From an uncultured Bacilli bacterium (GTDB taxonomy: Bacteria; Bacillota_I; Bacilli_A; RFN20; CAG-449): DNA of 64,000 nt. A model generated the notes under the pieces. That model did no database searches and had not been told where the DNA came from. It worked only from the letters and a program-made list of their open reading frames with translations. Position numbers and translations under genes: made by a program. The stretch spans positions 12,482 through 76,481 of the forward strand of contig CALVJO010000003.1 in NCBI GenBank assembly GCA_944332225.1, given 5' to 3'. Each line of letters starts with the position of its first letter. Positions within the stretch are counted from its first letter, which is position 1. Positions 5,521-57,714 of this stretch are shown piece by piece.

Positions 5521-6546
5521 ATGAAATATTTAACTTTAGTTGTGCCTTGCTATAACTCAGAAGAATACTTAAATCACTGTCTAGATACCTTAATTGTCGG
5601 GGGTGATGATGTAGAAATCATCGTCGTCAATGATGGATCAAAAGATAGAACTTTAGAGATAGCCAAGGAATATCAAACTCAATATCCAAACATTATTAAA
5701 ATAATAGATAAAGAAAACGGAGGTCATGGCTCCGGGATTAACTGCGGAATCAAAGAAGCAAAAGGATTATTCTTTAAAGTTTGCGACTCTGATGACTGGT
5801 TTGACCAAGATTCTTATTTAAAACTATTAAAGACTATTAAATATAATGTAGATAATAAAATTAATGTCGATATCTATTTTACTGATGTAATGTATGAAAA
5901 TAAGGTAAAAAACACGCAGTTTTTACTAAATAATAAGCATCATTTCCCACATGATAGGGTGTTTTCATGGGATGAGATGCATAATTTTAAAACTGGAGAA
6001 TATATCATGATGCATTCATTGACTTATTCTTTAGAGGTTTTAAAAAAATCAGGCGTGGTTCTTCCTGAAAAAACATTCTATGTTGATAATATCATGGCGT
6101 ATACACCTTTATTTTACGCAAAAGATTTATATTATTTAGATGTGCCTTTATATCGTTATTTTATCGGTAGAAAAGATCAATCGGTTAACGCGGATAATAT
6201 GGCTAAACGTTATGATCAGCAGCTTAGAGTAATGGATATCATCTATAATCAATTTACTTATGATGATTTATTGACTTTACCTAAAAAACAAAGAAAATAT
6301 TTGATTCATATATTAGGAATCTACACCTTTTTAACCATGTTCTTTATATATGCAAAATATAATAAAGAAAGAAAAATTGCCTTTAAAAAATTAAGAGAAG
6401 ATTTTAAAACTAAGAATCGAAAATTATATAAAAAAGTTTATCATTTTTCTCAAGTATCATTAATTATGTGCTTAATTAGTCCGCTTAGACGCTTCTTGGT
6501 GGTAACTGGATATAAAGTAGTAATTAAAATTACAAAGTGGGGATAA
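5521..6546 (+). CDS. Family 2 glycosyltransferase (GT-A fold) with C-terminal membrane segments
   Basis: LTLVVPCYNSEEYL...VNDGSKDRTLEIAKEY, DSDD (DXD). Hydrophobic C-terminus. Confidence 0.8.
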   Translation: MKYLTLVVPCYNSEEYLNHCLDTLIVGGDDVEIIVVNDGSKDRTLEIAKEYQTQYPNIIKIIDKENGGHGSGINCGIKEAKGLFFKVCDSDDWFDQDSYLKLLKTIKYNVDNKINVDIYFTDVMYENKVKNTQFLLNNKHHFPHDRVFSWDEMHNFKTGEYIMMHSLTYSLEVLKKSGVVLPEKTFYVDNIMAYTPLFYAKDLYYLDVPLYRYFIGRKDQSVNADNMAKRYDQQLRVMDIIYNQFTYDDLLTLPKKQRKYLIHILGIYTFLTMFFIYAKYNKERKIAFKKLREDFKTKNRKLYKKVYHFSQVSLIMCLISPLRRFLVVTGYKVVIKITKWG

Positions 6547-32012: not shown

Positions 32013-32040
32013 TGCCAAGGGGTAGGTTGGTGGTATAATT
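32013..32040 (+). promoter_or_regulatory. Sigma-A-type promoter for mraZ operon
   Basis: TTGCCA, 16-nt spacer, TATAAT, ~20 nt upstream of mraZ. GC-rich surroundings (GGGGTAGGTTGGTGG) resemble MraZ operator repeats. Confidence 0.45.
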
Positions 32041-32060
32041 AGGGCATCTGGTGGGAGGCA

Positions 32061-32513
32061 GTGGTAATGCAAATATTTTACGGAACCTACGTGTACCGAC
32101 TCGATGAAAAATCTCGCTTCGTTTTACCTCAGAAGATGCGCGATGCCATCGGCAGCAAATGTTACATTACCAAAGGCTTTGATAATTGCCTTTGTCTTTA
32201 CCCAGAAGAAACCTTTGTTGCTCTAAGCGAAAAGAACTCTCGACTCAACGACTTAATTCCAGAAGAAAGAAATTACAAAAGAACTTTCTTCGGTAGTTCC
32301 TCAGACTACACCTTGGATAAAGTTGGAAGAATCACCCTATCGAAGGATCATCTCCAACGGGCTAACATCGATAAAGATGTAGTGATAGTTGGAAACTTCG
32401 ACCACATCGAGATTTGGAGCAAAGACACTTACGACAAAATTTCTCTAAGCGATGATGAAAGCTATGAAGCCAACGCGAAGATCATCGGCGAGAAGAAGGA
32501 GAAAAATGTATAG
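32061..32513 (+). CDS. mraZ: Transcriptional regulator MraZ
   Basis: Two MraZ repeats (GTYVYRLDEKSRFVLP / VGRITLSKDHLQRANI). Precedes rsmH. Confidence 0.8.
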   Translation: MVMQIFYGTYVYRLDEKSRFVLPQKMRDAIGSKCYITKGFDNCLCLYPEETFVALSEKNSRLNDLIPEERNYKRTFFGSSSDYTLDKVGRITLSKDHLQRANIDKDVVIVGNFDHIEIWSKDTYDKISLSDDESYEANAKIIGEKKEKNV

Positions 32514-33965: not shown

Positions 33966-36512
33966 ATGAATATGGAAAAGACTCAATCAGCGAAGAAAAC
34001 TGTTATTAGAAGGTTAATTGGTTTAGGAGAAATCGCTTTAGCCATTTTAATAATTTATCTTGGTTTTTTAAGATTCGTTTTTGCTTATCTTTTCGGATGT
34101 TTATTTTTCTTAGTTTCCCTTTTCTTGCTTATCGATGGAGTCAACGCCTTAATCGTTCGTAAAAAGATTAAAATTATCTCTTTAACTGGAGCAATTTTAG
34201 TTTTTTTAGGGATTGTTATCTTGATATCATCTCCTAATAAATTAGAGCTAACGAATTTCTTTTCTAATTATCAGAATACGGTTAGTCTAGGAAATCAAAA
34301 TTTATCTTTTAGCTTTGAATTTATTTTTCAAAATCTTTATGGAGGTTTCGTTGGAGAATTTTTAGCAGCTTTACTCAATACTGTTTTTGGTAACTTAGCT
34401 ACGATTATAATCGGATCGATTTTATCATTTATCGGTTTTGTTCTTCTAATTTTAAATGCCTTTATCGATATTTATAAAAATTATAAGACCATCGATTTTG
34501 ATAAGATTAAAAGTCAAAAGAAAAAATCGGATGGCGAGATTAAAAATGATAGTTCTTTAAATGAGAAAAAAATAATTGAAACAGAAGAAAAAGAAAAAGT
34601 TAAAGATTTAAATTTAACTAATTTTGAAAATGAAATTGAGGCGTACGCTCCTAAAAAGAAAACCATAAATGAACCTATTTTAAATGATAGCAAAGCGAAT
34701 AATGAAGATACTCAAACTATTATTAAACCGTATACACAAGATTACTTTGAAGAAGTAGAACAAGATATTAAATCTAATGAATCGCTTAAAAACGATAATA
34801 TTGTCTCTCCATCTTCTCAAGATGATAATTCTCTCTATTCATCAAGAAAAGTAGCTCAAAATTCATATACCTTCACTGATTCTGATCAAAAAGATGTCTT
34901 TGATAAAATTGAGGAAGAAAATGTTATAAGAAGCAAAGAACGTCAAGAAAAAAATCAAAGACGATATGTCGATACCTTTAAAGATGATAAATTTTCTTCT
35001 TTCTTCTCAAATAAAGAAAAAGAAAATATTCAAGAACAAGCTGAAGAAGATTATTCTTCTTTACCATATGTTTTCCCATCTTTAGATCTTTTAAAAGATC
35101 GTCAAGTTACCACGAATCTTGCCGATAAGATTCAAACCGCGGATGAAAGAGCTAAAAAGATTAATGAATGCTTCCGTGATTTCCATATTGGAGCGATGGT
35201 AGTTTCCTATACGATTGGTCCATCGGTAACTAGATTTGATGTAAAACTTAATTCTAATGTTAAAACCTCAGTATTAAATAATTTAGAAACTGATTTAGGA
35301 GTTAGGCTTGAAGGAAATAAGACAGTTAGAATCGAAACCATCGTTGAAGGAAAAGACACCTGCGGAATTGAAGTTGGAAATAAAGTCTCAGATATCGTCT
35401 CTTTTAAAGATTGCATGCGAGCATTAGAATCTAATACCAAAGATAGATTGCTCTTCCCAGTTGGTAAAGATATCTCAGGCAATGTCATAATCGGAAAGCT
35501 CGATGATATGCCTCACTTATTAATCGCGGGAACCACGAACTCAGGTAAATCTATTTTTATCCATAATATCATCATGTCTCTTATCATGCGTAATAAGCCT
35601 GATGAGCTTAAATTAATGCTTCTTGATCCAAAGAAGGTAGAATTCGTTAAATATAATGAATTACCTCATCTTCTCTGCCCGATTGTTACCACGACTGAAC
35701 AAGGTAAAATCGCTTTAAAAACCTTAGTTCAAGAGATGGAAGATCGCTTTGACATGTTTGCTTTAAGAGGTGAAGGGGCAACATCGTATAAAGAATATTT
35801 AGAAGTATGCGAAGAACGCGGTTATAAAAAGATTCCATACATCGTTTTAATTATCGATGAGTTCGCTGATTTCATGGCAGAAGGAGATAAGGAGACTGCA
35901 AAATATATTCAAAGAATCGCCCAAAAGGCTAGAGCCTGCGGAATCTATATGATAATTGCTACTCAAAGACCATCTGCGAAAGTTATTACAGGTGAAATTA
36001 AAGCAAATATTCCTTCACGAGTTGCCCTTAGCGTCTCTCAAGCTCTTGAATCTAGAATCATCATCGATGAAGATGGCGCGGAGAACTTAGTAGGTAAGGG
36101 TGACTTACTTGCAAAACTCCCAACTTCTAAATCATTAATTAGAGCTCAATCAGCCTTCGTTGATTCAAAAGAGATCTATCAGGTGGTTCAGCATATTAAA
36201 AAATATGCAAAAGTTCATTACGACCCAAAATTTAATCTAGATATTAAAACTCCTTCAACTGGAACTTTAACAAATGATAATCGTTCATTTAGAGATGATG
36301 AATTATATGAGCAAGTTAAGACTTATGTTCTAGAAACTGGAAAATGCTCATCAACTAAGATCCAAAATGCCTTTAAAATAGGTTTTCCTCGCGCGGATGG
36401 AATTCTTGAAGCCCTTGAAGAAGATGGTATAATTAAAAAGGAAAATAATCATCGAGTGTTAGCGGATGAATATCGATTAGATTACGATGATTTCGATGAT
36501 GATGAGGAATAG
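33966..36512 (+). CDS. ftsK: DNA translocase FtsK/SpoIIIE
   Basis: 4 N-terminal TM helices, long linker, Walker A LIAGTTNSGKS, Walker B IIDEFADFMA, C-terminal gamma winged helix (GKCSSTKIQNAFKIGFPRADGILEALEEDGII). Confidence 0.9.
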   Translation: MNMEKTQSAKKTVIRRLIGLGEIALAILIIYLGFLRFVFAYLFGCLFFLVSLFLLIDGVNALIVRKKIKIISLTGAILVFLGIVILISSPNKLELTNFFSNYQNTVSLGNQNLSFSFEFIFQNLYGGFVGEFLAALLNTVFGNLATIIIGSILSFIGFVLLILNAFIDIYKNYKTIDFDKIKSQKKKSDGEIKNDSSLNEKKIIETEEKEKVKDLNLTNFENEIEAYAPKKKTINEPILNDSKANNEDTQTIIKPYTQDYFEEVEQDIKSNESLKNDNIVSPSSQDDNSLYSSRKVAQNSYTFTDSDQKDVFDKIEEENVIRSKERQEKNQRRYVDTFKDDKFSSFFSNKEKENIQEQAEEDYSSLPYVFPSLDLLKDRQVTTNLADKIQTADERAKKINECFRDFHIGAMVVSYTIGPSVTRFDVKLNSNVKTSVLNNLETDLGVRLEGNKTVRIETIVEGKDTCGIEVGNKVSDIVSFKDCMRALESNTKDRLLFPVGKDISGNVIIGKLDDMPHLLIAGTTNSGKSIFIHNIIMSLIMRNKPDELKLMLLDPKKVEFVKYNELPHLLCPIVTTTEQGKIALKTLVQEMEDRFDMFALRGEGATSYKEYLEVCEERGYKKIPYIVLIIDEFADFMAEGDKETAKYIQRIAQKARACGIYMIIATQRPSAKVITGEIKANIPSRVALSVSQALESRIIIDEDGAENLVGKGDLLAKLPTSKSLIRAQSAFVDSKEIYQVVQHIKKYAKVHYDPKFNLDIKTPSTGTLTNDNRSFRDDELYEQVKTYVLETGKCSSTKIQNAFKIGFPRADGILEALEEDGIIKKENNHRVLADEYRLDYDDFDDDEE

Positions 36513-39875: not shown

Positions 39876-41285
39876 ATGAATTTATTTAAAAAATTACCAG
39901 ATAATTTTTTCTCTCTACTAGCCTCGAAGAATAAAAATGTCTACGGGATGGCTTTGCTTGTCCTGTATGATGCATTAAGCATGTATCGCGACAAAATTAG
40001 AAGAAGCGATTATGTTAGTTTGTTAAAAAATAGGCTCAGCGAAGAGATGTCTGATTTTGTTGAAGAAGATGAAAATCCGTTTGAAGATAAGGCTTCTTTA
40101 ATCGTTAGAAGATTAATAGAAACCGGATGGATCTATATTGATTATGATCCTGCCTTCATGACTGAATTTATTTTATTACCATCATATTCAGTCAACATGC
40201 TAAAAGTAATTAATGAATTTGCTTCATCAAGTCAGTCTAATTACGTCTCATACGTTCATACGACTTATGCGGACTTAAAAATTGAAGATGATTCACAAGA
40301 TGAATCGATGTATAAAGTTCTAGAAAATGCTTATCATAACACCCAACTTTTAGCCGTTGAGGTTATTAAGCTCGATCATTCTTTAAGAGTTTATAAACAT
40401 CAGTTAGGAAGCTTATATAATCCAAATGATGTTTTAAGACAGCATTTTGATATTTCTAGAGAAGATGTGATCGATCCGATTTACCATCCATTGAAGACTC
40501 ATGATTCGATAACTTTGTATCAAGGTCCGATTTCAGCGATTCTAAAAAAATGGCTCGAGGTCGATTCGGTTAGAGAAAAATTAATTGAACAATGCTTAAA
40601 AGAAAATCGAGATGTTAAAAATCGTTCTCAAGCGACTTCTTTGATCGTGAAGATGATAACTGAGATTCAGGATACATACTTTAAATTAGCAAATGAAATC
40701 AATAAAATCGATGTTGTTCAATCTGAATATGTTAAAGCCTCATCTGATAAAGTTATCTTTTTGAACAATCAAGATCGTTCCGTCAAAGGAAAATTAGAAA
40801 AGATAATCGCTGTTTTAGCCCGTAATATCAATGGCCCAGAAGAGACAAGAAAAGATTTTAATATCGTTAAATCTTTTGTTTCTTCAATCAAGTTATATAC
40901 TCAAGGATATTACGATAGCGATTCGCTTCGTTTCCCTTATTCAAGAAGTGAAAAGATCATAAGCGAGCCATTATCACTTTCTGATGATGATTATGAATTC
41001 AATGAAGATGCCTTCCTCTCTTCTCTTGAGGAAAACAAAAAGTTTTCAGATGATAATATCATGGCGTTCATGGCTTCGCAATTTAAGGGAAATGATTCAG
41101 TCGAAGTTAAGGATATGGAAATTAACTCGATGGATGATTTCTTATATTTGATTTTAGGAACTGTCAAGTTTGATTATGCTTCATCTTTCTATACTTTAGA
41201 AAGAGAGGATAAGCTTGATGTTAATATTCAATTAAATTCTAAAGTTAATGCGCCTAACTACACTTATAGAAAGAAGGAGAAATAG
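39876..41285 (+). CDS. Putative kleisin-like subunit (JetA/MksF-like) of an SMC-type complex
   Basis: 469-aa acidic soluble protein. First gene of a tightly coupled 469/207/1118-aa cassette whose sizes and order match JetA-JetB-JetC / MksF-MksE-MksB. Family is inferred from context only. Confidence 0.4.
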   Translation: MNLFKKLPDNFFSLLASKNKNVYGMALLVLYDALSMYRDKIRRSDYVSLLKNRLSEEMSDFVEEDENPFEDKASLIVRRLIETGWIYIDYDPAFMTEFILLPSYSVNMLKVINEFASSSQSNYVSYVHTTYADLKIEDDSQDESMYKVLENAYHNTQLLAVEVIKLDHSLRVYKHQLGSLYNPNDVLRQHFDISREDVIDPIYHPLKTHDSITLYQGPISAILKKWLEVDSVREKLIEQCLKENRDVKNRSQATSLIVKMITEIQDTYFKLANEINKIDVVQSEYVKASSDKVIFLNNQDRSVKGKLEKIIAVLARNINGPEETRKDFNIVKSFVSSIKLYTQGYYDSDSLRFPYSRSEKIISEPLSLSDDDYEFNEDAFLSSLEENKKFSDDNIMAFMASQFKGNDSVEVKDMEINSMDDFLYLILGTVKFDYASSFYTLEREDKLDVNIQLNSKVNAPNYTYRKKEK

Positions 41286-41909
41286 ATGCTAGAAGAATAT
41301 AATAATTTACGAGATATCGAAAAAGAAGAATTTGCTCATGTGGTAAATACCTTGCTTTTAAAAAGTTTTATTTTGAGAGATTACTATGATCGTAACGCGA
41401 AGATGACGCGCGCTTCAAAAGAATATACTTTCATCGAAAGAAATTTTGATTTAGTTTCTGATTATCTTCATCTCTCAGGATGGATTCTTGAAAAAGATTC
41501 CTCTAGGGGAGTCATCTCAATTAAAAATGAGTATCAAGAGAACCATCTTAAACTTGATTTAATCACTTCTTTAATGATTTTAGGCTTACGTTATTACTAT
41601 GAAACTAATTCTTCTACTGATGCCTTGCATGCGATGGTTCAACTTTCTTCTCAAGATTTAGTTACCATTTTAATTAACTTTAATTTGATTAGAAAAGATA
41701 AAAGACCATCATATGCTTCTTTAGGAGCCTCTTATCGTTTTCTTGAGCAGCATAATATCATTACAAGAATATCCGGAGATTTTAAAGAGAAGAATTTAAC
41801 ATTCTATATCAATCCTTCAATTGTCTTTGTCGTCGATTATGAAGTAATTCAATCATTATACAAAGAGATTGAACGAGCACCTGATGAGTTTATGGGGGAT
41901 AACTTATGA
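41286..41909 (+). CDS. Putative MukE/JetB/MksE-like subunit
   Basis: 207 aa. Start abuts the upstream stop and the stop overlaps the downstream start (ATGA). Size and position match MksE/JetB. Confidence 0.4.
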   Translation: MLEEYNNLRDIEKEEFAHVVNTLLLKSFILRDYYDRNAKMTRASKEYTFIERNFDLVSDYLHLSGWILEKDSSRGVISIKNEYQENHLKLDLITSLMILGLRYYYETNSSTDALHAMVQLSSQDLVTILINFNLIRKDKRPSYASLGASYRFLEQHNIITRISGDFKEKNLTFYINPSIVFVVDYEVIQSLYKEIERAPDEFMGDNL

Positions 41910-44900
41910 AAAAACTAACTAAATTTAGATTGATCAATTGGCATTATTTTCAAAATATTGAAGTAAAATTTGGAATGATCAACTTTCTAACCGGGGTCAC
42001 CGCGGCTGGAAAATCAACCATGATCGACGCGATGCAGGTTATTTTATTAGGTGATACTTTAGGTAGGTCATTTAATAAGGCGGCGAATGAGAAATCTTCG
42101 CGTACTTTAAAAGGATACCTTCGTTGCGAAGTCGGAGACAATCCTGATGGATCGACTCGTTATTTAAGAAATGGTAGATTCACTTCCTATATCGCAATGG
42201 AATTTTATGATGATGTCGCGGAGCATCCGTTCTCTATCGGTATCGTCTTTGATGTCTTTGATGATGGAAGCGAGCAACATAAATTCTTCTATTTAGATGA
42301 TGGGTTCCCAGAGAATCATTTTATTGAAGATAAGATTCCTCTTTCTTATAAGAGCTTAGCTGAGTATCTTCAAGTTAATTATCCGGGAAAATATACTTTC
42401 TTTGATACTTCGGTTAGATATCGAGAGATGATCAAAGAGAAGTTTGGTAACTTAAAAGATAAATATTTTAGCTTATTTAAAAAAGCTGTCTCTTTCCAAC
42501 CTATCTCTGATATTGAGCAATTCATCACTGAATATGTCTGCGATGTTCCATCTCAAATCAATATCGATTCGATGAATGAAAATATTAAATCTTATGAAAG
42601 ATTGAAGATTCAAGCTGATGATATGCGAATTAAAATCGCTGCATTAGAGAAGATTCAAGCTGTTTATTCTAAGATCGTTGAAAAGAGAAATGAGCAAAAT
42701 TTAGCTTCTTATATTTCGAAAAGAACTAATTTAGAGATTATTAGACAGAGAATTGATAACTTGCATAAAGAAAAATTTTCATGCGAAGCTAGAATTCAAG
42801 AAATCGAACAAGAGATCATTGAAATTGATACCCAAATTAATGATTTAAATAACTCTAAAGAAAGATTGATCGCTCATAAGTTTTCTAATGATTCATATAA
42901 ATTGAATCAGGAATTAGAGAATGCTTATGAAGAAAGCAAACGAAAGATGGAAGAGATCCAATCTCGGTTGAACTCTTTATATAAAAATATCACCGTCTAC
43001 TGTAATCAGTTTTATGGCTATGCGACAAAAGTTAATGTCTTAGCCGATAAAGCTAGAGAAAATATCGATGATGCTTCATTAGAGGATTCTTTAAAGCATC
43101 TATCTCTTGAATCAATCAATTTGATTAGAAAATTAGATGAATTAAAGGACGCGATTACTTCTTATTCTTTAACTGAAGATGATTTTAAAGTTTTCTCTAA
43201 GGCGATTATCGATTTTAAAAATGTAATGATCGAAGAATACGCGGTGGTAAGAAATATTGTTGGAAAAATCATCAATCAACTTTCTCAACAAAAACAAATC
43301 TTACAAACTTCTTCTTCAGGTAAATATTATGATGAAGCTTTCTTAAGAGTGAAAAATCAGCTTTCGATTGCTCTAGAAGACCATTTCCATAAGAAAGTAG
43401 ATGTCTCAGTTTATGCTGATTTAGTTGATATCAAAGATAAATCTTGGACTAACGCGATTGAAGCTTATATCTATTCTCAAAAGATTTATATGTTCGTCGA
43501 TGATGAATATTATCTCTATGCCAATAAGATTTTACCTTCAATCATGCGCAATAATCGCTTCACGAGAACCGGTTTAGTCGACTCTAGAAAATTAAGAGAA
43601 AAGAATTTTATATCTTCTCAAGATTCTTTAGCGGAAGAAATCATAACCGACCATCAAGGCGCGAGAGATTACACGAATTATCTATTAGGTAATTTAAAGA
43701 AATGCGATACCTTTGAAGAAGCCCGTGAATCAGGAAGAGGTATTTTAAAAACCTGTCAAGGATATCAAAACTTTACCTCATTCTATTTTGATGAAGGGCG
43801 TTATCGTTATCCTTTAATCGGAAGAAAAGTAACAAAAGAAGATAGAGAAAAACGTTTGAGATCTCTTGAAAAAGAAAGTCTTTCTTTAGAAGCATTAAAA
43901 GAATTAAACGATACTTTAGCTCTTTCTAAATCGATGGAAGTCATGTCAACTTCCGAGCAACAAATGTGTATTGAAGGTTTATCTAGCGGCTTCTTACTCG
44001 ATAATTTAAAGAAGAATGTCGAGCAATATCGTCAGGAAATCGAAGATAATTCCTCTCAAGATATCAAAACTATCGATAACAAGATTAAAAATATCGACTC
44101 CGATATCTCAACTTTAAATAAGCGTAAAGAAGAGTTGATAACCGAAAAAGGATCATTAGACAACCAAATCAAGAATATTCAAGAAGATCGCTTGAAACAA
44201 GAAACTCAACGACAAGTCGATATCGATAATGAAATCAATGATTCATTTGACCATGATTTTATCGAAGGAGTTTGTAAAACTACCTACGATCAAGAGATTT
44301 TAACTTCGAATATTCCTTCTATAAGAGCTAAATACGATGAAATATATTCTAAAGCTCAATACTCATTACGTAATTTAAAAGAAGAGATTAAGGATTTAAG
44401 AACTACATATGTGGTAACTAATAAGCTATCTTATGATATTTCAAAAGAAGATAACTCTGATTTTGATAATGAATTATATCATTTAAGAGAGATTGAATTA
44501 CCAAAATATCTCATTCAAATTCAAGATGCTTACGATAAAGCTGTCAGCGAATTTAAAAATGATTTCATCGTTAAACTAAGAACATCTATCGTAGAAGCTA
44601 GAATTCAAATTAATGAATTGAATCAAGCTTTAAAAGATTTTAAATTCGGTAACGACGTCTTTGAATTCACCGTATCACCTAACCCTCAATATATCGATTA
44701 TTATAATATGATCACCGATGAGACTTTATTAGAAGGTGGTATCGATGATTCTCAGTTCTTAGCTAAGTATCAAGATGTCATGGATAGTTTATTTAGGCTT
44801 ATTTCTGATGATGGAGGAAGCAAGGATCGTTCCGGGAAGGTGGAACAAAATATTCTTAAATACACAGACTTCAAGTCATATTTATTCTTTGATTTAAAGA

Positions 44901-45262
44901 TTAAAAAGCCTGATGGTTCGATAAATTCCTTATCTAGAAATATTAAAAAGGCTTCAGGAGGTGAAACTCAAACACCTTTCTATATCTCAATATTAGCCTC
45001 ATTTAGCCAACTTTATCGGGTGAATTCCTCACCTTCATTATCAAATTGCATCAGATTAGTGCTTTTCGATGAAGCTTTTTCAAAAATGGATAGAAATAGA
45101 ATCATCGAATCTATTAAAATATTAAAAGATTTTGGCTTACAAGCCATCATCTCTGCTCCACCTGAGAAAGTTAATGATATCTCATCATTAGTTGATTCAA
45201 ACTTAACAGTTACTAGAACCAACAATATTTCTCACGTCGACAGCTTTGTTTATAAGGAGTAA
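41906..45262 (+). CDS. MukB/JetC/MksB-like SMC ATPase
   Basis: N-terminal FRLINWHYFQNIEVKF...FLTGVTAAGKST (compare MukB LTLINWNGFF...LSGGNGAGKST). ~800 aa of heptad-rich coiled coil. C-terminal signature ASGGETQ, Walker B LVLFDEAFSKMD, D-loop. Confidence 0.75.
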   Translation: MKKLTKFRLINWHYFQNIEVKFGMINFLTGVTAAGKSTMIDAMQVILLGDTLGRSFNKAANEKSSRTLKGYLRCEVGDNPDGSTRYLRNGRFTSYIAMEFYDDVAEHPFSIGIVFDVFDDGSEQHKFFYLDDGFPENHFIEDKIPLSYKSLAEYLQVNYPGKYTFFDTSVRYREMIKEKFGNLKDKYFSLFKKAVSFQPISDIEQFITEYVCDVPSQINIDSMNENIKSYERLKIQADDMRIKIAALEKIQAVYSKIVEKRNEQNLASYISKRTNLEIIRQRIDNLHKEKFSCEARIQEIEQEIIEIDTQINDLNNSKERLIAHKFSNDSYKLNQELENAYEESKRKMEEIQSRLNSLYKNITVYCNQFYGYATKVNVLADKARENIDDASLEDSLKHLSLESINLIRKLDELKDAITSYSLTEDDFKVFSKAIIDFKNVMIEEYAVVRNIVGKIINQLSQQKQILQTSSSGKYYDEAFLRVKNQLSIALEDHFHKKVDVSVYADLVDIKDKSWTNAIEAYIYSQKIYMFVDDEYYLYANKILPSIMRNNRFTRTGLVDSRKLREKNFISSQDSLAEEIITDHQGARDYTNYLLGNLKKCDTFEEARESGRGILKTCQGYQNFTSFYFDEGRYRYPLIGRKVTKEDREKRLRSLEKESLSLEALKELNDTLALSKSMEVMSTSEQQMCIEGLSSGFLLDNLKKNVEQYRQEIEDNSSQDIKTIDNKIKNIDSDISTLNKRKEELITEKGSLDNQIKNIQEDRLKQETQRQVDIDNEINDSFDHDFIEGVCKTTYDQEILTSNIPSIRAKYDEIYSKAQYSLRNLKEEIKDLRTTYVVTNKLSYDISKEDNSDFDNELYHLREIELPKYLIQIQDAYDKAVSEFKNDFIVKLRTSIVEARIQINELNQALKDFKFGNDVFEFTVSPNPQYIDYYNMITDETLLEGGIDDSQFLAKYQDVMDSLFRLISDDGGSKDRSGKVEQNILKYTDFKSYLFFDLKIKKPDGSINSLSRNIKKASGGETQTPFYISILASFSQLYRVNSSPSLSNCIRLVLFDEAFSKMDRNRIIESIKILKDFGLQAIISAPPEKVNDISSLVDSNLTVTRTNNISHVDSFVYKE

Positions 45263-45263
45263 T

Positions 45264-45740
45264 ATGGATTTAACGTGTTCTTTAATTTATCTTGCAATAT
45301 TCCTATTGATCTTAATCATTGTATTTTTTATCCTGCAATTGCTATTTAGAAGGACGCGTTTAATCACGGTTTTCTTTGGTATCTTACTTTTATCAAATTT
45401 AACCTTATTAGCTATCAATAATTGGTTTGGAGATATATTTAATGTAGTAATCGATCAAAATAATAATCTTACCGTCAATGTTGATTTCTTACTTTACTGT
45501 ACAAAAAATGTCTTAACTATTATTTCTCTACCGATTACTTTATTTCATACTTTATTCACCAGCGTCATTTTAAATATCTTCTCTACTTTCATGGAAGATA
45601 TTCAGATAGTCTATGATATTTTATCTTGGAATAATTATTATATGCTAGTTTTCTATCTAGTGATGTTCGTTCTCTGCTTGATTCTCTTTAGAAAAAAGAA
45701 AAAGAGAAAATCTTTAGCTAATTCACGTTATGATGATTAA
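45264..45740 (+). CDS. Hypothetical polytopic membrane protein (4 predicted TM)
   Basis: ATG at 45264 with AAGGAG SD right after the JetC-like stop. Four hydrophobic helices, basic C-terminus KKKKRK. Confidence 0.45.
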   Translation: MDLTCSLIYLAIFLLILIIVFFILQLLFRRTRLITVFFGILLLSNLTLLAINNWFGDIFNVVIDQNNNLTVNVDFLLYCTKNVLTIISLPITLFHTLFTSVILNIFSTFMEDIQIVYDILSWNNYYMLVFYLVMFVLCLILFRKKKKRKSLANSRYDD

Positions 45741-45742
45741 TA

Positions 45743-46639
45743 ATGGAGAAGTTTGATTTAAGGTTAGATCAATTAAAATATCAAAAAGTCTCGTCGTTTT
45801 TAAGATTGGTGATCTTCTTTGCTTTAGGCAATGTTTTATTGATTATCATCGTGCAGATCATCAATTTTATCATTTATCGACAAGACTTTTTTATCTTCGA
45901 TGATTTTGTCTTCTTTGCTTTTGGTCTTGGAGAGATTCCTTTAATTATTCTACTTATAATTTATTATGTGTATCTCGATAGAAAGTTCATTAATAATTAT
46001 GTTGAAACTCTGATATCCGAAGTTAGATTAGAAGATATATATTTTTTGAAAAATACTCCACCTAAGCAGGAAGAATTAATTAATCATTTAAAGAAAATAT
46101 TCTTTTTAAAGAAAATTGATTATTACCAAGGATATTCTTTAGCCTCGACTTCTCTAGCTATCGATTTATTTAATGTTAAATATAACGATAATATAAAGGT
46201 AAATAAAGGAATGTTAATCATCTTAAATTTCAATATTGATAAAGATTTATTCCTTCAGATTTGTAAAGAGAATTTCTATGCATCGCGATATTATGAAAAT
46301 GATGAGATTAATCGTTATGGATTTAACAATAAAAATAAAGTTTTGACTTATAATGTCTATTCTAATTCAAACTATGTATATTCAATCATCTCTAATGAAG
46401 GAAAAAAATATTTTAAAAATTTAATTAATTACTTAAAATCGGAAGTTAATATCGTTTTAGATGATGGAACATTATTTATTTTAGTAAAAAAATTTAAAAT
46501 TAAGACTTACAATCATCTCTACAAATTCATCACCAGCGAAGTCTTCGATGAAAAAATCTTAGCTATAAAGCATCTAAATGACTATCTATTTGAATTAGCT
46601 AACTATTTACAAAAGCTTCTCGAAAATTTTGAAAAATAA
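45743..46639 (+). CDS. Hypothetical membrane-anchored protein (2 N-terminal TM + ~200-aa soluble domain)
   Basis: Start overlaps the previous stop (TAATG), same operon. No recognised motif. Confidence 0.45.
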   Translation: MEKFDLRLDQLKYQKVSSFLRLVIFFALGNVLLIIIVQIINFIIYRQDFFIFDDFVFFAFGLGEIPLIILLIIYYVYLDRKFINNYVETLISEVRLEDIYFLKNTPPKQEELINHLKKIFFLKKIDYYQGYSLASTSLAIDLFNVKYNDNIKVNKGMLIILNFNIDKDLFLQICKENFYASRYYENDEINRYGFNNKNKVLTYNVYSNSNYVYSIISNEGKKYFKNLINYLKSEVNIVLDDGTLFILVKKFKIKTYNHLYKFITSEVFDEKILAIKHLNDYLFELANYLQKLLENFEK

Positions 46640-51424: not shown

Positions 51425-53056
51425 ATGCTAGTTTCTTTAAAAATCACAAACTACGCTTTAATTGAGTCTTTGTCATTGCAATTTGATTCTCCTTATCTAG
51501 GTTTTATCGGCCCTTCCGGCGCAGGTAAATCTTTAATAATCGAATCTCTTACTTTATTAAAAGGAATTAAAGGTGACGTCTCAAAAATTAGAAAAGGAGA
51601 AAGCTATTTAGAAGTGGAAGGAAAATTCATCGCTTCTAAATTTAATGAGGAAAAGTTTATTTCTAGATTTAATGATACAAAAGTTCTTGTATCTAGAAAG
51701 ATAGATTCAAAAGGAAGAAACACGATCAAGATTAATCATAAAGTAGCCACCTTGAATGAATTAAAAGAAAAATTTAATGATTTAATTGATTTTCATAGTC
51801 AAATTTCTGATTCACGTTACCTTGCTTCTTATGATGATCTTTTAGATTTTTATATTAATTTAAAAGCATCTGTTAATGAAAAGAATCACTTTTTAGAATA
51901 TAAAAATAATCTAAAAACATATAAAGAAAATTTAAAAAATATCGAAGAATTAGAAGAGAAAAAACAAGATATCGGCTCATTAGAAAACTTAAAGAATAGA
52001 ATCGATGAATTAGAGAATCTTCAAATCAAAGAAGATGAGATGGAACATCTTGAAGAAGAGAAATTAAACCTTCAAAACTTTAAAAAAGATTTAAATGATT
52101 ATCAGAGCTTTTTATCAAATTTTGAGGAGATTACTAGCTCTTTATCCTCTTGTAAAAATGCTATTTTAAGAATTAATGATTCGGAGATTGAACCTCTTCA
52201 AAATCGCTTTAATGAATCATATTATGAATTAATCGATATCAAAAACGAAGTTGAAAATAAGTATTCTTCGATGCAGGAAAGAATTGACTACCTTCAAAAT
52301 ATCGAAGAAAGATTATATCTTTTACATTCTTTAAGAAAGCGATATGGTTATTCTACTAAAGAAATCCTAGAGTCATTAGAGAATTTAAAAGAAGATTATC
52401 AAGATTTTTCTACCTTAGATTCTCGTTTAGATGAATTAAAAGAAGATAACGAAATTCTATTTCAAAGATTAAATGATCTTTCTTCTAATATTCTTCATAA
52501 GATTAGAGAAAAATATAGTTTATCATTAGAGGAAGAAATTAACTCTTCTTTAAAGCGATTAGGCTTCTTCAATTCATCTTTTAAGGTTAGTTTAGAGACT
52601 TCTTCTTCTTTTTTAGAAAATGGAAATGATATAGTTACCTTTTTACTTCAGGCTAATAAAGGAGAAAATTATCTTCCTTTAGCAAAATCAGCATCTTTAG
52701 GTGAATCATCTAGATTAAATTTTGCCTTAAAATACGTCTTTAATAAATGCATTCCTCCAGAGCTAATCATCTTTGATGAGATCGATGTTGGTTTATCTCA
52801 AGAGATGGGAATTTCCTTAGGAAAAATGATGTTAGAATTAAAAGATTATTCAATGATTATTTTAATATCTCACCTTCCTTCCTTAACCGCGTCTTTAAAT
52901 GATATTTATTTAGTTTCTAAAGAAGTAATCAATGATCGTACCTTAACCATCTGTAAGAAAGCTAAGAAAGAAGAAAAAGTAGAGATAATCGCTTCGATGA
53001 TATCATCATCTAATGGGTTAGAAGCCGCGAACAGCCTTATTTTACAATATCAATAA
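51425..53056 (+). CDS. recN: DNA repair protein RecN
   Basis: LKITNYALIESLSLQF, Walker A GPSGAGKSLII, long coiled coil, C-terminal signature and Walker B (IIFDEIDVG). Confidence 0.85.
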   Translation: MLVSLKITNYALIESLSLQFDSPYLGFIGPSGAGKSLIIESLTLLKGIKGDVSKIRKGESYLEVEGKFIASKFNEEKFISRFNDTKVLVSRKIDSKGRNTIKINHKVATLNELKEKFNDLIDFHSQISDSRYLASYDDLLDFYINLKASVNEKNHFLEYKNNLKTYKENLKNIEELEEKKQDIGSLENLKNRIDELENLQIKEDEMEHLEEEKLNLQNFKKDLNDYQSFLSNFEEITSSLSSCKNAILRINDSEIEPLQNRFNESYYELIDIKNEVENKYSSMQERIDYLQNIEERLYLLHSLRKRYGYSTKEILESLENLKEDYQDFSTLDSRLDELKEDNEILFQRLNDLSSNILHKIREKYSLSLEEEINSSLKRLGFFNSSFKVSLETSSSFLENGNDIVTFLLQANKGENYLPLAKSASLGESSRLNFALKYVFNKCIPPELIIFDEIDVGLSQEMGISLGKMMLELKDYSMIILISHLPSLTASLNDIYLVSKEVINDRTLTICKKAKKEEKVEIIASMISSSNGLEAANSLILQYQ

Positions 53057-53095
53057 AGACATATCATAAATCTAAAAATAAAGTATAATATAGCT

Positions 53096-54304
53096 ATGGA
53101 AAGCTATGTGATGGAGAAATATATTTGTCATATCGATTTAAATATGTTTTTTGCCGCGGCTCAGATCTTATTAGAACCGGAGTTAGAAGGTAAACCGTTG
53201 ATTATAGCCTCATCTTCAAGAAGAGGAATTGTTTCAACCGCGTCTTATGAAGCTAGAAAATACGGCATACATTCCGCGATGCCGACTTATCAGGCTAAAT
53301 TATTATGTAAGAATCTTGAGATTAGAAAGCCAAATTTTGCTTTATATCAAAGCTTATCTAATACTTTCTTTACCTATATTAAAGAACATTATTCTTCGAT
53401 CCTTGAGCAAGCTTCCATCGATGAAGCCTATATCGATTTAACTGATTATATAAAGCAAAATAAGGTTTCATCAAGGGATGATTTATATTCTCTATTAAAG
53501 GAGATTCAAGATACTTTATTAAAAGAGACTAAACTAAAGTGCTCGATTGGCTTAGGGCCGACGAGATTCTTAGCTAAAATGGGCTCAGATTATAAAAAAC
53601 CTTTAGGTATCACCATCATCAATAAAGATGATATCAAGAGAATGATTTATCCTTTAAAGATCGAAGATTTTTATGGAATTGGTAAGAGAAGTTATCCAAA
53701 GCTTCATACTTTAGGAATCTATTCTATTGAAGATTTTGCTTTAAATAAGTCTCCATTAATCAAAAAAATGTTCGGTAAATATTATGAAGAGATGATATCT
53801 AATCTTGAAGGGACCTCATCAAGTGAGATTAAAGTTGATCGAGGACAGGCAAAATCAATATCTTCATCGTCGACATTTGAATATGATACGGATTCTTATG
53901 AAGAGATTAGAGAGATGATCTTAAATAAATCTATGGAAGTAGCCTCCGATTTAAAAAAGCAGCATTTGATGGGAAAGACTATTAGTTTAATAATTAAAGA
54001 TTATCGATTTAAATCATTTTCTCGATCGTTAACTATCGATTCTTACGTCAATGATTATTTATCAATCTATGAAACTTGCATGGAACTATATGATAAAGAA
54101 TTTACTGATTGTTTGATTAGATTGGTAGGGGTTGGGGTTTCTTCATTGATTAATGAAAAGGATAACGTTAAGCAAGTCGATATATTTGAAGAGAAAAGTA
54201 AAGTAAAAACCTCACCTCAACTATTGGTAAAGCAGCTTAATTACAAGAATAATAAAGAAATATTTATTCTTGCTAAAGACTTAAATAAAGGAAAAAAAAG
54301 ATGA
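53096..54304 (+). CDS. dinB: DNA polymerase IV (Y-family)
   Basis: ICHIDLNMFFAAAQ catalytic motif, SIDEAYIDLT, little-finger domain. Confidence 0.85.
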   Translation: MESYVMEKYICHIDLNMFFAAAQILLEPELEGKPLIIASSSRRGIVSTASYEARKYGIHSAMPTYQAKLLCKNLEIRKPNFALYQSLSNTFFTYIKEHYSSILEQASIDEAYIDLTDYIKQNKVSSRDDLYSLLKEIQDTLLKETKLKCSIGLGPTRFLAKMGSDYKKPLGITIINKDDIKRMIYPLKIEDFYGIGKRSYPKLHTLGIYSIEDFALNKSPLIKKMFGKYYEEMISNLEGTSSSEIKVDRGQAKSISSSSTFEYDTDSYEEIREMILNKSMEVASDLKKQHLMGKTISLIIKDYRFKSFSRSLTIDSYVNDYLSIYETCMELYDKEFTDCLIRLVGVGVSSLINEKDNVKQVDIFEEKSKVKTSPQLLVKQLNYKNNKEIFILAKDLNKGKKR

Positions 54305-55179
54305 AAAATAATCAAGAATTATTAAATGAGTATCTTCTCTCGATCGTGGTAGAAAAAGGTTTATCTAAAAACACCTTATTAGCCTATAAAAATGATTTAA
54401 CTTTTTTTCTTAATTATTTAAAAGAAAACAATACTTTAATCTTAGATATCGATCATTATCAAGTAAATGAGTATATAGAATATCTACAAGATAATAAACT
54501 AGCGATTAAATCTATTAAAAGGAAAGTATCCGCGTTAAAAAACTTCTTTATCTATCTAACTTTACATGAAAACTTTAAGTATGATTTTTCCTATTTTGAG
54601 AGTTTGAAAGAAGAAGAATATCTACCTAAATTTGTCTTACAAGAGGATATGAATCGGGTGTTAGATTCTTTAAAGACAGACACTTTTATCGAGATAAGAA
54701 ATAAAGCAATATGCGAATTAATGTACGCGACGGGGATGAGAGTAAGCGAGCTTGTTTCCTTAAAAAGAGATAATGTTTCTTTTGTTAATCAAACGATTAA
54801 AGTAAATGGTAAAGGGGCTAAAGAAAGAATAATTCCATTTTCTGAAAAATGCTCAAAATGGTTATTACTTTATCTAGAAAAACTTAAAACTTTAGAGAAA
54901 AAAGGTAATAATAGTTATTTATTTATCACAAAAAATAACAAGCAAGTGACAAGACAAGAAATTTATATTTTAATAAAGGAGACCTTTGAAGAACAGGGAA
55001 TAAAGAATGTCACTCCTCATACATTAAGACATTCCTTTGCTTCCAATCTTCTAAGTCAAGGATGCCCTTTAATGATTGTTAAGACCCTTCTAGGGCATGA
55101 AGATATTAAGACAACTCAAATATATACCCATGTGGAAAATAAAAAAATTAAGTCGATTTATGACACGATTATGAAGTGA
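54301..55179 (+). CDS. Tyrosine site-specific recombinase, XerC/XerD-like
   Basis: N-terminal core-binding domain (LSKNTLLAYKNDLTFF), catalytic R...HxxR (LRHSFAS)...Y (IYTHV). 292 aa, typical of Xer rather than phage integrases. Confidence 0.8.
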   Translation: MKNNQELLNEYLLSIVVEKGLSKNTLLAYKNDLTFFLNYLKENNTLILDIDHYQVNEYIEYLQDNKLAIKSIKRKVSALKNFFIYLTLHENFKYDFSYFESLKEEEYLPKFVLQEDMNRVLDSLKTDTFIEIRNKAICELMYATGMRVSELVSLKRDNVSFVNQTIKVNGKGAKERIIPFSEKCSKWLLLYLEKLKTLEKKGNNSYLFITKNNKQVTRQEIYILIKETFEEQGIKNVTPHTLRHSFASNLLSQGCPLMIVKTLLGHEDIKTTQIYTHVENKKIKSIYDTIMK

Positions 55180-55186
55180 GGTAATT

Positions 55187-56380
55187 ATGAAATTTAAAAG
55201 AATATTTTTACTAGTAATGGATAGCGTCGGCGCGGGAATGATGGATGATGCTTATAAATTTAATGATGAAGGGGCTAGCACCTTAGTCCATATTTCTCAA
55301 AAAGTTAATGGATTGAAGGTTCCAACCTTAAATTATCTTGGATTATACGATTGTAATAATGATATCCTTGGAGTGAATAAAGTAGATCATCCTTATTCTT
55401 ATGTCACAAGATTAAATGAAGAAAGTAACGGAAAAGACACCATGACCGGGCATTGGGAGATGATGGGAGTATTAACCACAAAACCGTTTAAAACATTTAC
55501 CGACACGGGATTCCCTCAAGAGCTTATCGATGAATTAGAAAAGAAAACTAATCGAAAGTATATTGGTAACATCTCAGCTTCCGGGACGGAGATAATTAAA
55601 CAACTTGGAGAGAGAACCTTAAAAACTGGAGAAATCATTCTCTATACCTCCGCGGATTCCGTCCTCCAGCTCTGCGCGAATGAAGCAGTCGTCCCATTAG
55701 ATGAATTATATTCAATCTGTAAGATAGCTAGAGAAATCTGCTTAAAGGATGAATATAAGGTGGGAAGAGTAATCGCTAGACCATTTGTTGGAACGAATAA
55801 AGATAACTTTAAAAGAACTCCAAATCGTCACGATTATGCTTTAAGTCCGTCTTCATATACTTATATGGAAACATTAAAAGATAATCATAAAGATGTAATC
55901 TGCGTTGGAAAAATAAATGATATCTTTAATGGAGTAGGAGTCACAAAAACCTATAAAACTGTTTCAAATCATAATGGAATGGAAATCACTCAAAATATCG
56001 CAAGAGAAGAATTTGAAGGATTATGCTTCATTAACTTAGTTGAATTTGATTCTGAATACGGACATAGAAGAAATCCTGAAGGATACGCGCGTTGCATTGA
56101 AGAATTTGATACAGATTTAGAAAAATTAATCCAATTATTAAAAGAAGATGATTTATTGATTATAACCGCGGATCACGGCAACGATCCAACCTTCCCTGGC
56201 AGCGACCATACAAGAGAAAAAGTTCCATTCATCGCGTATTCAAAAATGTATCGTAATGGAAGAAAGATTGAAGAGAGAAAATCATTCGCGGATATAGGAA
56301 GAACAATCATTGAAAACTATAATTTACCAAAGAAAGAAGAACAAATCGGAACTGTTATTAGAGAAATCTTAGAAGACTAA
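55187..56380 (+). CDS. deoB: Phosphopentomutase
   Basis: MKFKRIFLLVMDSVGAG, metal-binding DHGNDPT, 397 aa. Confidence 0.9.
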   Translation: MKFKRIFLLVMDSVGAGMMDDAYKFNDEGASTLVHISQKVNGLKVPTLNYLGLYDCNNDILGVNKVDHPYSYVTRLNEESNGKDTMTGHWEMMGVLTTKPFKTFTDTGFPQELIDELEKKTNRKYIGNISASGTEIIKQLGERTLKTGEIILYTSADSVLQLCANEAVVPLDELYSICKIAREICLKDEYKVGRVIARPFVGTNKDNFKRTPNRHDYALSPSSYTYMETLKDNHKDVICVGKINDIFNGVGVTKTYKTVSNHNGMEITQNIAREEFEGLCFINLVEFDSEYGHRRNPEGYARCIEEFDTDLEKLIQLLKEDDLLIITADHGNDPTFPGSDHTREKVPFIAYSKMYRNGRKIEERKSFADIGRTIIENYNLPKKEEQIGTVIREILED

Positions 56381-57024
56381 ATAGAGTAATATTAAATGAC
56401 ATAATTAAGTAATAATAATGTCATATAGTAGATATTTAGTAAATAGTAAATAATTAGTAATATATAAGTATAAAGTAGGTAATTAGTAGATAATATATTA
56501 ATTGTTTAGTAATTAGATAATTATAAATAGCTTTCTGCTAAGATCGCCTACTTTTCTATTTATATTAATTTAAAATCATCAAAAATTTTAATTTTTATAC
56601 ATAATATCAATTATGCGAAGTTAATATTAATATAAAATTAAGATTAACAATTGACTATATAAACAAGATTCAAAATAAGCAAAAATACCCTATTCTCTAT
56701 ACAGTAAAGATCTATAAGTTAATTTTACTTTACCATTACTTAGATAATACTAAATATTTACTATCTACTAATATTCTACTAATTTTGTTCTTTGATTGTA
56801 TTTGATATATTTCTGATCATCTTCTATATTTCTTTTTAATGATTCTAGATAGATGATAATCCCCTATTTTCAGAAATAAAAAGTAGATTTTAAATCTACT
56901 ATTTTAATACTAGATAAATACTTTATATTAACTTTATATAAATATTAACTAAGTATCTACTAATTATTAACTATTACTAATAAATAACTAATTATTTACT
57001 AAATTAGTATATTTAGTTATTTAA
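56381..57024. repeat. 645-bp AT-rich non-coding region between convergent genes, with clustered inversely oriented 9-mer repeats (TAGTAGATA/TATCTACTA, TAGTAAATA/TATTTACTA) and a 19-bp perfect palindrome
   Basis: TAGTAGATA at 56426 and 56484 (forward); TATCTACTA at 56772 and 56954 (reverse); AGTAGATTTTAAATCTACT palindrome 56882..56900; TAGTAAATA at 56438/56444 versus TATTTACTA at 56765/56993. No ORF of 60 aa or more. Confidence 0.6.
56594..56621. other. Candidate dif-like Xer recombination site
   Basis: TTTATACATAA-TATCAA-TTATGCGAAGT shares the CATAA-N6-TTATG core of E. coli (GCGCATAA TGTATA TTATGTTAAAT) and B. subtilis dif. Lies between the forward and reverse repeat blocks, 1.4 kb from the Xer gene. 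Confidence 0.35.
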
Positions 57025-57714
57025 TCAGTCGATTAAAGTTTTTAAAACTTCGACACAATTTTTACAGCACGCATTAATATTCGTTGAACTATCTTTTTGA
57101 TTATCTTCATCATATAAAGAATCAGATATGGATCTTATTATGATAAAAGGAATATTTTCTCTATAACAACAATGGCCAACGGAGGCAGCTTCCATCTCAA
57201 CACATAATGGATAATCTTGTTTTAATGAAGGATAGTCTTGGTAATTCTTCTTTGTGATGAATGAATCGCTAGAGAGAATTAATCCATATTTAATATCAAA
57301 TGAATCGATTTTATCTAATTTATCTTTTTTCTTTTCTATATAATCCATGTCTGTTTCAAAGAATCGAGGAAATTCAGGAACTTGTCCTAAAGAATAATTA
57401 AACGCGGTGACATCTACATCAAAATAACCAACTTTCGTAGCAATGACGATATCTAATGCTTTTATATTTTTAGAATACCCTCCAGATGTTCCTAAATTAA
57501 AAACGCGTTTAATAGAATATTTAGAAAATATTTTCCCAAGCATGAAAGAAGTCATCACTTTTCCTATTTGTCCCCTGAAAAGCAAAAATTCCTCATTATT
57601 TAATTTAAATGAGTAATGATTATCGTCTTTAAATATCTTGACGTTTAAACTATTGAGGATTGCTTCCTCTTCTTCCTTCATCGCGACAATTATTAAATTA
57701 TATACTTTTTCCAT
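57025..57714 (-). CDS. mtnN: 5'-methylthioadenosine/S-adenosylhomocysteine nucleosidase
   Basis: IIVAMKEEEEAIL (compare IGAMEEEV), DVDVTAFNYSLGQVPEFP (compare DADVTAFGYEYGQLPGCP), EMEAASVGHCC. Confidence 0.8.
   Translation of the reverse strand: MEKVYNLIIVAMKEEEEAILNSLNVKIFKDDNHYSFKLNNEEFLLFRGQIGKVMTSFMLGKIFSKYSIKRVFNLGTSGGYSKNIKALDIVIATKVGYFDVDVTAFNYSLGQVPEFPRFFETDMDYIEKKKDKLDKIDSFDIKYGLILSSDSFITKKNYQDYPSLKQDYPLCVEMEAASVGHCCYRENIPFIIIRSISDSLYDEDNQKDSSTNINACCKNCVEVLKTLID

Follow-up and report, generated by a model that had tools for sequence, protein, structure and literature searches.

The prevailing view of chromosome dimer resolution is that a chromosomal dif site needs its 28-bp core together with an FtsK translocase guided by chromosome-wide polar motifs, and that accessory sequences are a speciality of plasmids. 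At cer and psi, which are plasmid sites, the core is bordered by about 150-180 bp of DNA to which proteins bind at fixed, helically phased distances, and global regulators shape the synapse, ArgR with PepA at cer and ArcA with PepA at psi; ArgR and ArcA have many other sites on the chromosome, and ArcA-type sites are direct repeats 11 bp apart. The subject of this work is a 64,000-nucleotide stretch of DNA from an uncultured Bacilli bacterium (contig CALVJO010000003.1; hereafter the window, meaning the whole stretch analyzed), in which a 644-bp gap between two genes, at 56381-57024, contains a dif site flanked on both sides by phased arrays of a short repeat.

The locus resembles the chromosomal dif/XerCD-FtsK system of Escherichia coli and of Bacillus subtilis (CodV-RipX) in having a 28-bp site of 11-bp arms and a 6-bp spacer, present in single copy at the GC-skew switch with XerD-like and FtsK genes nearby, but the Bacilli examined here add phased TTAGTAG repeats on the flanks, whether or not a DnaA-box-like site accompanies them, and the recognition helix of the FtsK gamma domain is atypical. 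The closest precedent for the flanking DNA appears, by analogy, to be the accessory DNA of cer and psi. In both cases what would be a protein-binding array stands at a fixed, phased distance from the core (here about 121, 131, or 142 bp from dif, with the DnaA-box-like site at -95 ± 11n), and in relatives the array unit recurs elsewhere on the chromosome, as do ArgR and ArcA sites; the module described here differs in being chromosomal, on the XerD side, and two-sided in the window, whereas cer and psi are plasmid sites with their accessory DNA on the XerC side. A description of such a dif-flanking module was not found in the literature searched.

A dif site at the replication terminus

We identify the gap with high confidence as the terminus of replication and the locus of chromosome dimer resolution in this genome, given the match to dif, its uniqueness, the skew peak 64 bp away, and the nearby genes for an XerD-like recombinase, FtsK, and ParC. 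The site and the genes that define the locus are as follows:

56594..56621, minus strand: dif, the 28-bp XerC/XerD site, ACTTCGCATAA (XerC arm)-TTGATA-TTATGTATAAA (XerD arm)
ending at 56380, plus strand: deoB (phosphopentomutase), the left border of the gap
ending at 57025, minus strand: mtnN/pfs-like nucleosidase gene, the right border of the gap
54301..55179, plus strand: XerD-like tyrosine recombinase gene, 1.4 kb from dif, with the Pfam domains Phage_integrase and SAM_1
33966..36512, plus strand: FtsK/SpoIIIE translocase gene with alpha, motor, and gamma domains, 20 kb upstream of dif

The two 11-bp arms of the dif site are arranged in imperfect dyad symmetry about the 6-bp spacer, and the XerD arm faces left, toward deoB. 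The site is identical at 20 of 28 positions to the experimentally defined dif of E. coli and at 20 of 28 to that of B. subtilis (both reference sequences from PMC3025954), and it is the only one in the 64-kb window, where the runner-up matches 16 of 22 arm positions. Within the window, the cumulative G-C curve reaches its maximum at 56530, inside the gap, and the skew is +0.10 to the left of the locus and -0.12 to the right; a preliminary description of this DNA, made from its letters alone, had proposed the skew maximum as a check, and the maximum falls where it was sought. The same description had reported a region free of open reading frames (ORFs) at a convergent strand switch, and we find the same: the gap, with a G+C content of 17%, contains no ORF of at least 40 amino acids, and all ORFs of at least 100 amino acids are on the plus strand to its left and on the minus strand to its right. 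The parC gene lies 4 kb downstream of dif, while recN and dinB precede the xerD-like gene and deoB comes after it. Even on the most modest reading of what surrounds it, the terminus and dif of this genome are fixed to the base.

Related loci were collected by a scan with the deoB protein, taking one genome per species, which gave 80 loci, the best of them from uncultured low-GC gut Bacilli. The closest deoB is 79% identical, so the species of the window itself is not in the collection, and the counts given below cover related, non-independent genomes. In 50-52 related loci, a dif site with the consensus ACTTCGYATAA-N6-TTATGTWAA occurs in the same orientation, 0.2-4 kb downstream of deoB. The gene order recN-dinB-xerD-deoB (51425-56380 in the window) terminates at dif, and in relatives a dxs-dinB-xerD-deoB block stands 0.2-4 kb from dif; since this recN/dxs-dinB-xerD-deoB block adjoins dif, xerD is linked to its own site across the clade.

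Phased repeat arrays on both sides of dif

Two 9-mers had been singled out in the preliminary description, and their copies lie in the gap as TAGTAGATA (starting at 56426 and 56484) and TAGTAAATA (56437 and 56444) and as the reverse complements TATTTACTA (56755 and 56993) and TATCTACTA (56762 and 56954). Of the starts originally given, 56426, 56484, 56444, 56954, and 56993 stand, 56438 is to be read as 56437, and 56765 and 56772 as 56755 and 56762. Counted on both strands of the 64-kb window, eight of the nine copies fall within the gap, with no wider polar spread of the kind that the proposed per-strand count had been meant to reveal. The 9-mers are parts of tandem arrays, in which the unit has the core TTAGTA(G/A) and a period of 11 bp:

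56426..56470, plus strand: left distal array, TAGTA(G/A) at 56426, 56437, 56444, and 56455 with a degenerate AAGTA at 56466; the left arm of an inverted repeat
56472..56512, plus strand: left proximal units, aAGTAGgtaat-TAGTAGataat at -121/-110 from dif and TAGTAA at 56507 (-87)
56737..56781, minus strand: right proximal array, units at 56752, 56763, 56770, and 56781; the right arm of the inverted repeat
56882..56900, no strand: 19-bp palindrome, AGTAGATTT-T-AAATCTACT, with 9-bp arms and one central base, consisting of two inverted units
56954..57001, minus strand: right distal array of five TACTA/AACTA units, spaced 10, 7, 11, and 11 bp apart and immediately 3' of the mtnN stop codon

The arrays are polar and are not random. 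To the left of dif, TAGTA occurs six times and TACTA not at all, and to the right the counts are one and nine (Fisher p = 0.0009), which bears out the flip in motif orientation noticed earlier. The center of the flip, taken as the midpoint of the inverted repeat described below, coincides with dif, a site that had been overlooked. Pairs of units exactly 11 bp apart occur five times in the gap and nowhere else in the window, compared with 0.08 pairs expected from dinucleotide shuffles of the two flanks, none of which reached five in 5000 trials; the motif is almost absent from the window's 21 other intergenic gaps. Together, the shuffles and the near-empty gaps indicate that the array signal is not AT-rich noise.

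The longest inverted repeat has 45-nt arms (56426-56470 and 56737-56781) that are 84% complementary, and its midpoint at 56603.5 coincides with dif. The proximal array on the right is an inverted copy of the array on the left; the two are near-symmetric about dif, and every unit points at it. The left distal units lie 139, 150, 157, and 168 bp from dif (-139 to -168), the right proximal units, on the XerC side, lie at 131, 142, 149, and 160 bp, and the two arrays have identical internal spacings of 11, 7, and 11 bp. The left proximal pair at -121/-110 sits in one of the registers used by the relatives, which are described below.

The perfect palindrome at 56882-56900 is exactly as it had been reported. 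It is flanked by an A-run and a T-run, and on the minus strand the hairpin is followed by UUUUUAUUU. Its predicted folding energy is -9.4 kcal/mol on the minus strand (z = -2.5) and -7.7 kcal/mol on the plus strand, and it is probably the intrinsic terminator of the mtnN operon; its G-C pairs are too few for a consensus terminator scan.

A conserved module on the XerD side of dif in related genomes

A comparison with the corresponding region of relatives had been recommended at the outset, and it finds the same repeat pair beside dif. On the XerD-arm side of 52 loci, at least one 11-bp pair is present in 47, a TGTGGAWAA box in 40, and both in 39. Within 500 bp of dif in the related loci, TTAGTAG points toward dif 63 times and away from it four times, and TAGTAGA 38 times and once, respectively. 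In the 200 bp at the XerD arm, TTAGTA[GA] occurs 74 times on the plus strand (toward dif) and three times on the minus strand, compared with 0-4 occurrences per 200-bp bin elsewhere, summed over 50 loci, so that the enrichment is limited to this stretch. The motif is kept beside dif even at deoB identities of only 57-79%.

The order of elements in the relatives is the end of a gene, TTAGTAGwTwT-TTAGTAGwT, an interval of 14, 25, or 36 bp, TGTGGA(T/A)AA, about 85 bp that usually end with a short hairpin and a T-run, and then dif. The 9-mer of this order is a perfect DnaA box, reading TGTGGATAA or TGTGGAAAA on the dif-pointing strand and TTATCCACA or TTTTCCACA on the other. It is found about 95 bp before dif in related loci L004-L077 (for example at about 11871 in L034 and about 14967 in L022), it is rare elsewhere in the related loci, and it co-occurs only with dif-linked arrays, so that it stands at the replication terminus and not at the origin. 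In the window and in its relative L001 the box is missing. The window contains no intact DnaA-box-like 9-mer, and the nearest thing to one is the following:

56512..56520, plus strand: uncertain candidate relic of the DnaA-box-like 9-mer, ATTAGATAA, matching TGTGGATAA at 6 of 9 positions, at -82 from dif

Distances to dif are quantised, and between the motifs it is length that is conserved and not sequence. In 41 of the 47 loci with a pair, the pair nearest dif starts 119-123, 128-132, or 139-144 bp away from it, in clusters at about 121, 131, and 142 bp. By comparison, the interval between the upstream stop codon and the array varies from -3 to 1247 bp. The box starts at -95 ± 3 in 28 loci, and all 11 outliers are within 2 bp of a shift of ±11 or ±22 from -95; of about 100 pairs of neighboring units, 58 have a spacing of 11 bp. 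Because the positions are nearly unimodal, a Rayleigh test does not separate periods of 10-12 bp. The arrays are nonetheless placed relative to dif in helical-turn steps, which argues for proteins on defined faces of the DNA and against a role at the level of RNA or of stop codons.

Pairs on the XerC side are confined, among the relatives, to L001, L004, and L005, all of which are among the closest, and in the other 49 loci the pair is on one side of dif only. Compared with the relatives, the window has in addition the distal block of four units, the inverted copy on the XerC side, and the five-unit array after mtnN. Judging from this distribution of XerC-side pairs, the symmetric, polarity-switching layout of the window is a lineage-specific elaboration of a one-sided, widely conserved module.

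Arrays away from dif

The unit is not restricted to dif in all genomes. In the relatives, pairs and triplets of the TTAGTAG unit immediately precede the dxs, dinB, and xerD start codons, arrays follow parC and plsY, and an antisense array lies just upstream of the tkt ribosome-binding site. The density of such arrays is about one per 17 kb. Of 60 off-dif arrays, 44 are directed toward dif and 16 away from it; the sense arrays include 39 toward and three away, and 12 antisense arrays are directed away. These arrays thus adhere strictly neither to the replichore nor to the direction of the genes. Some arrays of opposite polarity, 7-12 kb from dif, are conserved. The spacer before dxs is completely filled in many relatives by an array of two or three units, which runs into the start codon (TAGTATG) and leaves no Shine-Dalgarno sequence (for example L011 at 5910, L024 at 5886, and L034 at 5931). 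In the window and its nearest relatives arrays are seen only at dif, and three loci with a dif but no array beside it (L025, L063, and L078) have no arrays anywhere. The array unit has the look of a site for a general DNA-binding factor, present in some lineages and absent from others, with one copy of the site kept beside dif.

A scan of metagenomes for TTAGTAG-N4-TTAGTAG returned 126 arrays, nearly all from unrelated environments, of which only that of L162 is beside dif; such a scan could not give the fraction of arrays that are dif-linked. The unrelated 30% G+C metagenome contig L179 carries antisense arrays of this form between nrdA and nrdB (3637-3680) and another in the divergent nrdA-pfk region (6284-6305), with no dif module nearby. 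The viral contigs L201-L231 contain perfect 11-bp tandem repeats that start with TTAGTAG, each with a different 4-nt filler; these are unrelated, surfaced through the search pattern, and look like ordinary iteron-type repeats.

The XerD-like and FtsK proteins

The XerD-like protein scores 281 bits with the NCBIfam model for XerD and 255 bits with that for XerC, both under the equivalog cut-offs, and the window contains no second Xer gene. The FtsK gamma domain (C-terminus, 36180-36512) scores 51 bits with Pfam, but its recognition helix is FKIGFPRADGILEALE instead of the canonical xLGYNRAARIIDLLE, with RADG for RAAR, and NNHRVL replaces GSKPREVL. The closest FtsK homologues (P0001, P0002, and P0003) have an atypical helix too, with xADG or xADH, whereas homologues about 44% identical have the canonical GYNRAARIIDLLE. 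The residues N1296 and R1300 of E. coli FtsK, which we take to be needed for reading its polar motifs, align here with P and G, suggesting the possibility that the FtsK of this lineage reads another sequence, or none.

Discussion

What the data show is the dif site and the place of the terminus, arrays that are non-random, polar, and phased at 11 bp, and, in relatives, their conservation at quantised distances from dif; that a protein binds them, its identity, and any influence on recombination are inferred. The reading that we favor, with a confidence falling slightly short of even, is that the arrays are docking sites of a putative DNA-binding protein, forming a phased architecture beside dif that would play an accessory role. 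The earlier suggestion that they are binding sites of a terminus-related protein is still the best general reading. In our proposal, the putative protein would occupy successive tandem units head-to-tail on a single helical face, and the bound arrays would build a fixed nucleoprotein architecture, fixed and phased in its distance to the XerD arm. Across the wider clade it would be on the XerD-arm side together with the DnaA-box-like site, and in most genomes a protein bound to that box, presumably DnaA, would lie in between. The module would work like the accessory sequences of cer and psi, in that a general factor would have been co-opted to shape the DNA beside the core, and the shaped DNA would control when and in which geometry XerC and XerD act. 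It could also act jointly with the FtsK that carries the atypical gamma domain.

Several considerations weigh against this proposal. The binder and the effect on recombination are putative. The accessory sequences of plasmid Xer sites are on the XerC side and bind ArgR or ArcA with PepA, whereas here it is the XerD side that is conserved, and inspection of the sequence revealed neither an ARG box nor an ArcA box. The window itself is without a DnaA-box-like site, and its arrays are expanded and two-sided, which makes them look more like converging polar signals than like an accessory arm on one side. That arrays occur at many further intergenic sites means that the motif has a life apart from dif. 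Finally, the 11-bp quantisation comes from related genomes with few outliers, in which the Rayleigh test leaves periods of 10-12 bp unseparated.

The main rival is FtsK loading, namely that the arrays are local FtsK-orienting or FtsK-loading sites, analogous to the FtsK orienting polar sequences (KOPS) or the SpoIIIE recognition sequences (SRS), which would be read by the divergent gamma domain, with FtsK reaching dif from the XerD side and activating XerD. We consider this unlikely. The resemblance is that of short polar motifs that flip at dif and point to it: units converge on dif from left and right in the window, as they do in L001, L004, and L005, the array of the wider clade is always on the XerD side and dif-pointing, and there is an FtsK with a gamma domain, whose diverged recognition helix is common to the closest homologues. 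KOPS also differ between lineages and may be A-rich, the KOPS of Lactococcus lactis being GAAGAAG (PMC3384302). The preliminary idea of polar chromosomal motifs directed at dif is right to the extent that dif is present and the motifs on both sides point at it, but the motifs are not of a chromosome-wide, KOPS-like kind. KOPS are spread over the chromosome, G-rich, and mostly single 7-8-mers, whereas here clustered tandem arrays are confined to the gap, the other 63 kb containing no 11-bp pair and a single copy of the 9-mers. The arrays of the relatives, moreover, are not strictly skewed, and those among the 16 pointing away that lie upstream of tkt and after plsY are conserved. Restriction of the motif to the gap in the window and these conserved arrays of the wrong polarity contradict KOPS-like guidance. 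A translocating motor also gives no reason for a distance quantised in helical turns, and the conserved DnaA-box-like site between array and dif is a further point against loading.

Equally deserving of consideration, though in our judgment improbable, is that the arrays are ordinary sites of a general nucleoid or regulatory protein, for example a roadblock or operator at operon ends, with no role in dimer resolution, and that the flip in orientation mirrors the convergent operons. Consistent with this are the arrays before dxs, dinB, and xerD, after parC and plsY, upstream of tkt, and around nrdA, nrdB, and pfk in L179, the co-orientation of most arrays with their flanking genes, and the complete lack of arrays in genomes that have none at dif. 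Such a protein would not be expected to leave a pair beside dif in 47 of 52 genomes against one array per 17 kb elsewhere, nor a position that is fixed with respect to dif and free with respect to the upstream stop codon; the lineage of the window, in addition, has arrays only at dif, and the DnaA-like box is found only with dif-linked arrays.

A fork trap, in which the arrays would be polar, Ter-like fork barriers that forks enter but cannot leave, with termination at dif, is in our view very unlikely. Opposed polar clusters do flank the skew switch within ±170 bp, as opposed polar sites surround the terminus in the Tus and RTP systems; terI and terII of B. subtilis also form an inverted repeat, and the TACTAA core presumably resembles the B. 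subtilis Ter half-sites. The arrays, however, are tandem 11-bp repeats, whereas Ter is a bipartite site of about 30 bp. The one-sidedness of the array in most relatives, the conserved arrays of the wrong polarity 7-12 kb away, and the lack of a tus or rtp gene among the part of the window's ORFs that was scanned contradict such a trap, and known traps are confined to the Tus and RTP lineages (PMC10331603).

That the arrays are chance low complexity in an AT-rich spacer, or the decayed terminal inverted repeats of a lost mobile element as was once proposed, is most improbable, and is rejected, despite the low G+C content of the gap and its 45-nt inverted repeat, since the shuffles do not reproduce the 11-bp pairs, the motif is wanting in the other AT-rich gaps of the window, it is conserved beside dif across genera and at the deoB identities given above, and the supposed element, with no transposase and no target duplication, would hold dif alone.

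If the proposal of a docking site is extended to the clade, it becomes one that we regard as possible but rather doubtful: that a clade of uncultured gut Bacilli has an undescribed accessory module at its chromosomal dif, made of phased TTAGTAG repeats to which most members add a DnaA box at 95 bp from the XerD arm, the module assembling a nucleoprotein complex that governs dimer resolution and acting either as a topological filter like that of cer and psi or through a coupling to DnaA or to a re-specified FtsK gamma domain. The lineage of the window would then be derived, having lost the box and duplicated the array in inverted form across dif. If this is true, a phase-locked module would be a third way to control dimer resolution, and the DnaA box at the terminus could tie the end of replication, or DnaA, to segregation in uncultured small-genome Firmicutes. 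In practical terms, TTAGTAG-N4-TTAGTAG ... TGTGGAWAA ... dif is a signature for locating dif in metagenome-assembled genomes of the clade, and the arrays would define a binding motif for the putative general DNA-binding protein.

Other candidates for the repeats

The DnaA box and the TAG repeats 5' of it on the same strand, as found in relatives, recall the basal unwinding system (BUS) of oriC, which consists of a DnaA box, a spacer of at most 16 bp, and then at least three contiguous trinucleotides of the form.A. (PMC8287927). The module differs from it in its location at the terminus, in a spacer of 14-58 bp, in having two TAG triplets per unit (the units give TAG-TAG and then WTW), and in the lack of an intact box in the window, and a DnaA-trio element was therefore rejected. 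An array of low-affinity DnaA boxes was likewise rejected, as the unit logo conserves TTAGTA(G) and not the positions of a DnaA box.

Plasmid or phage iterons, which had been put forward as an alternative, do not fit: the context is one of chromosomal housekeeping genes, there is no rep gene and no plasmid match by BLAST, and the phage hits are the unrelated perfect tandem repeats mentioned above. The three-unit arrays could be read as -35 and -10 elements (TTAGTA-17 nt-TAGTAT), but this was dropped because arrays abut start codons, for example that of dxs. The idea of stop codons in three frames (11 mod 3 = 2) fails in that the arrays are tied to dif and not to stops, antisense arrays are conserved, and the window uses the standard genetic code and has no arrays after its other genes. 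The FapR operator, whose half-site we take to be TTAGTA, has an inverted arrangement, whereas the units here are direct, and the context is not one of lipid metabolism.

MraZ-binding repeats were also considered and rejected, since the dif arrays are TTAGTAG and not GTGG(G/T), and the box of the relatives has an invariant A after GTGG. The window does contain four to five GTGG(G/T) direct repeats, about 10-11 bp apart, at 32020-32066, where they overlap the -10 region upstream of mraZ (32061-32513) and are the expected MraZ autoregulatory site. In this genome mraZ and rsmH are followed by ftsK and not by the usual division genes.

Further features of the window

One more element lies within the gap:

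56396..56424, plus strand: hairpin ATGACAT...ATGTCAT, directly 3' of deoB and 5' of the left array, -10 kcal/mol, z = -3.2

An analogous hairpin is found 3' of deoB in L001. A search against Rfam gave nothing at the gathering threshold in the window and nothing at E <= 1 in 56200-57200, and neither tRNA nor tmRNA was found; in a consensus scan, sigma-70-like matches were rarer than in shuffles and a strong terminator was not found. Elsewhere in the window, 39876-46639 encodes a Wadjet-type anti-plasmid system, with JetA at 39876-41285, JetB/DUF4194 at 41286-41909, and the SMC-like ATPase JetC at 41906-45262. Two ORFs that follow JetC (45246-45740 and 45743-46639) and give no hits in Pfam or NCBIfam might stand in for JetD.

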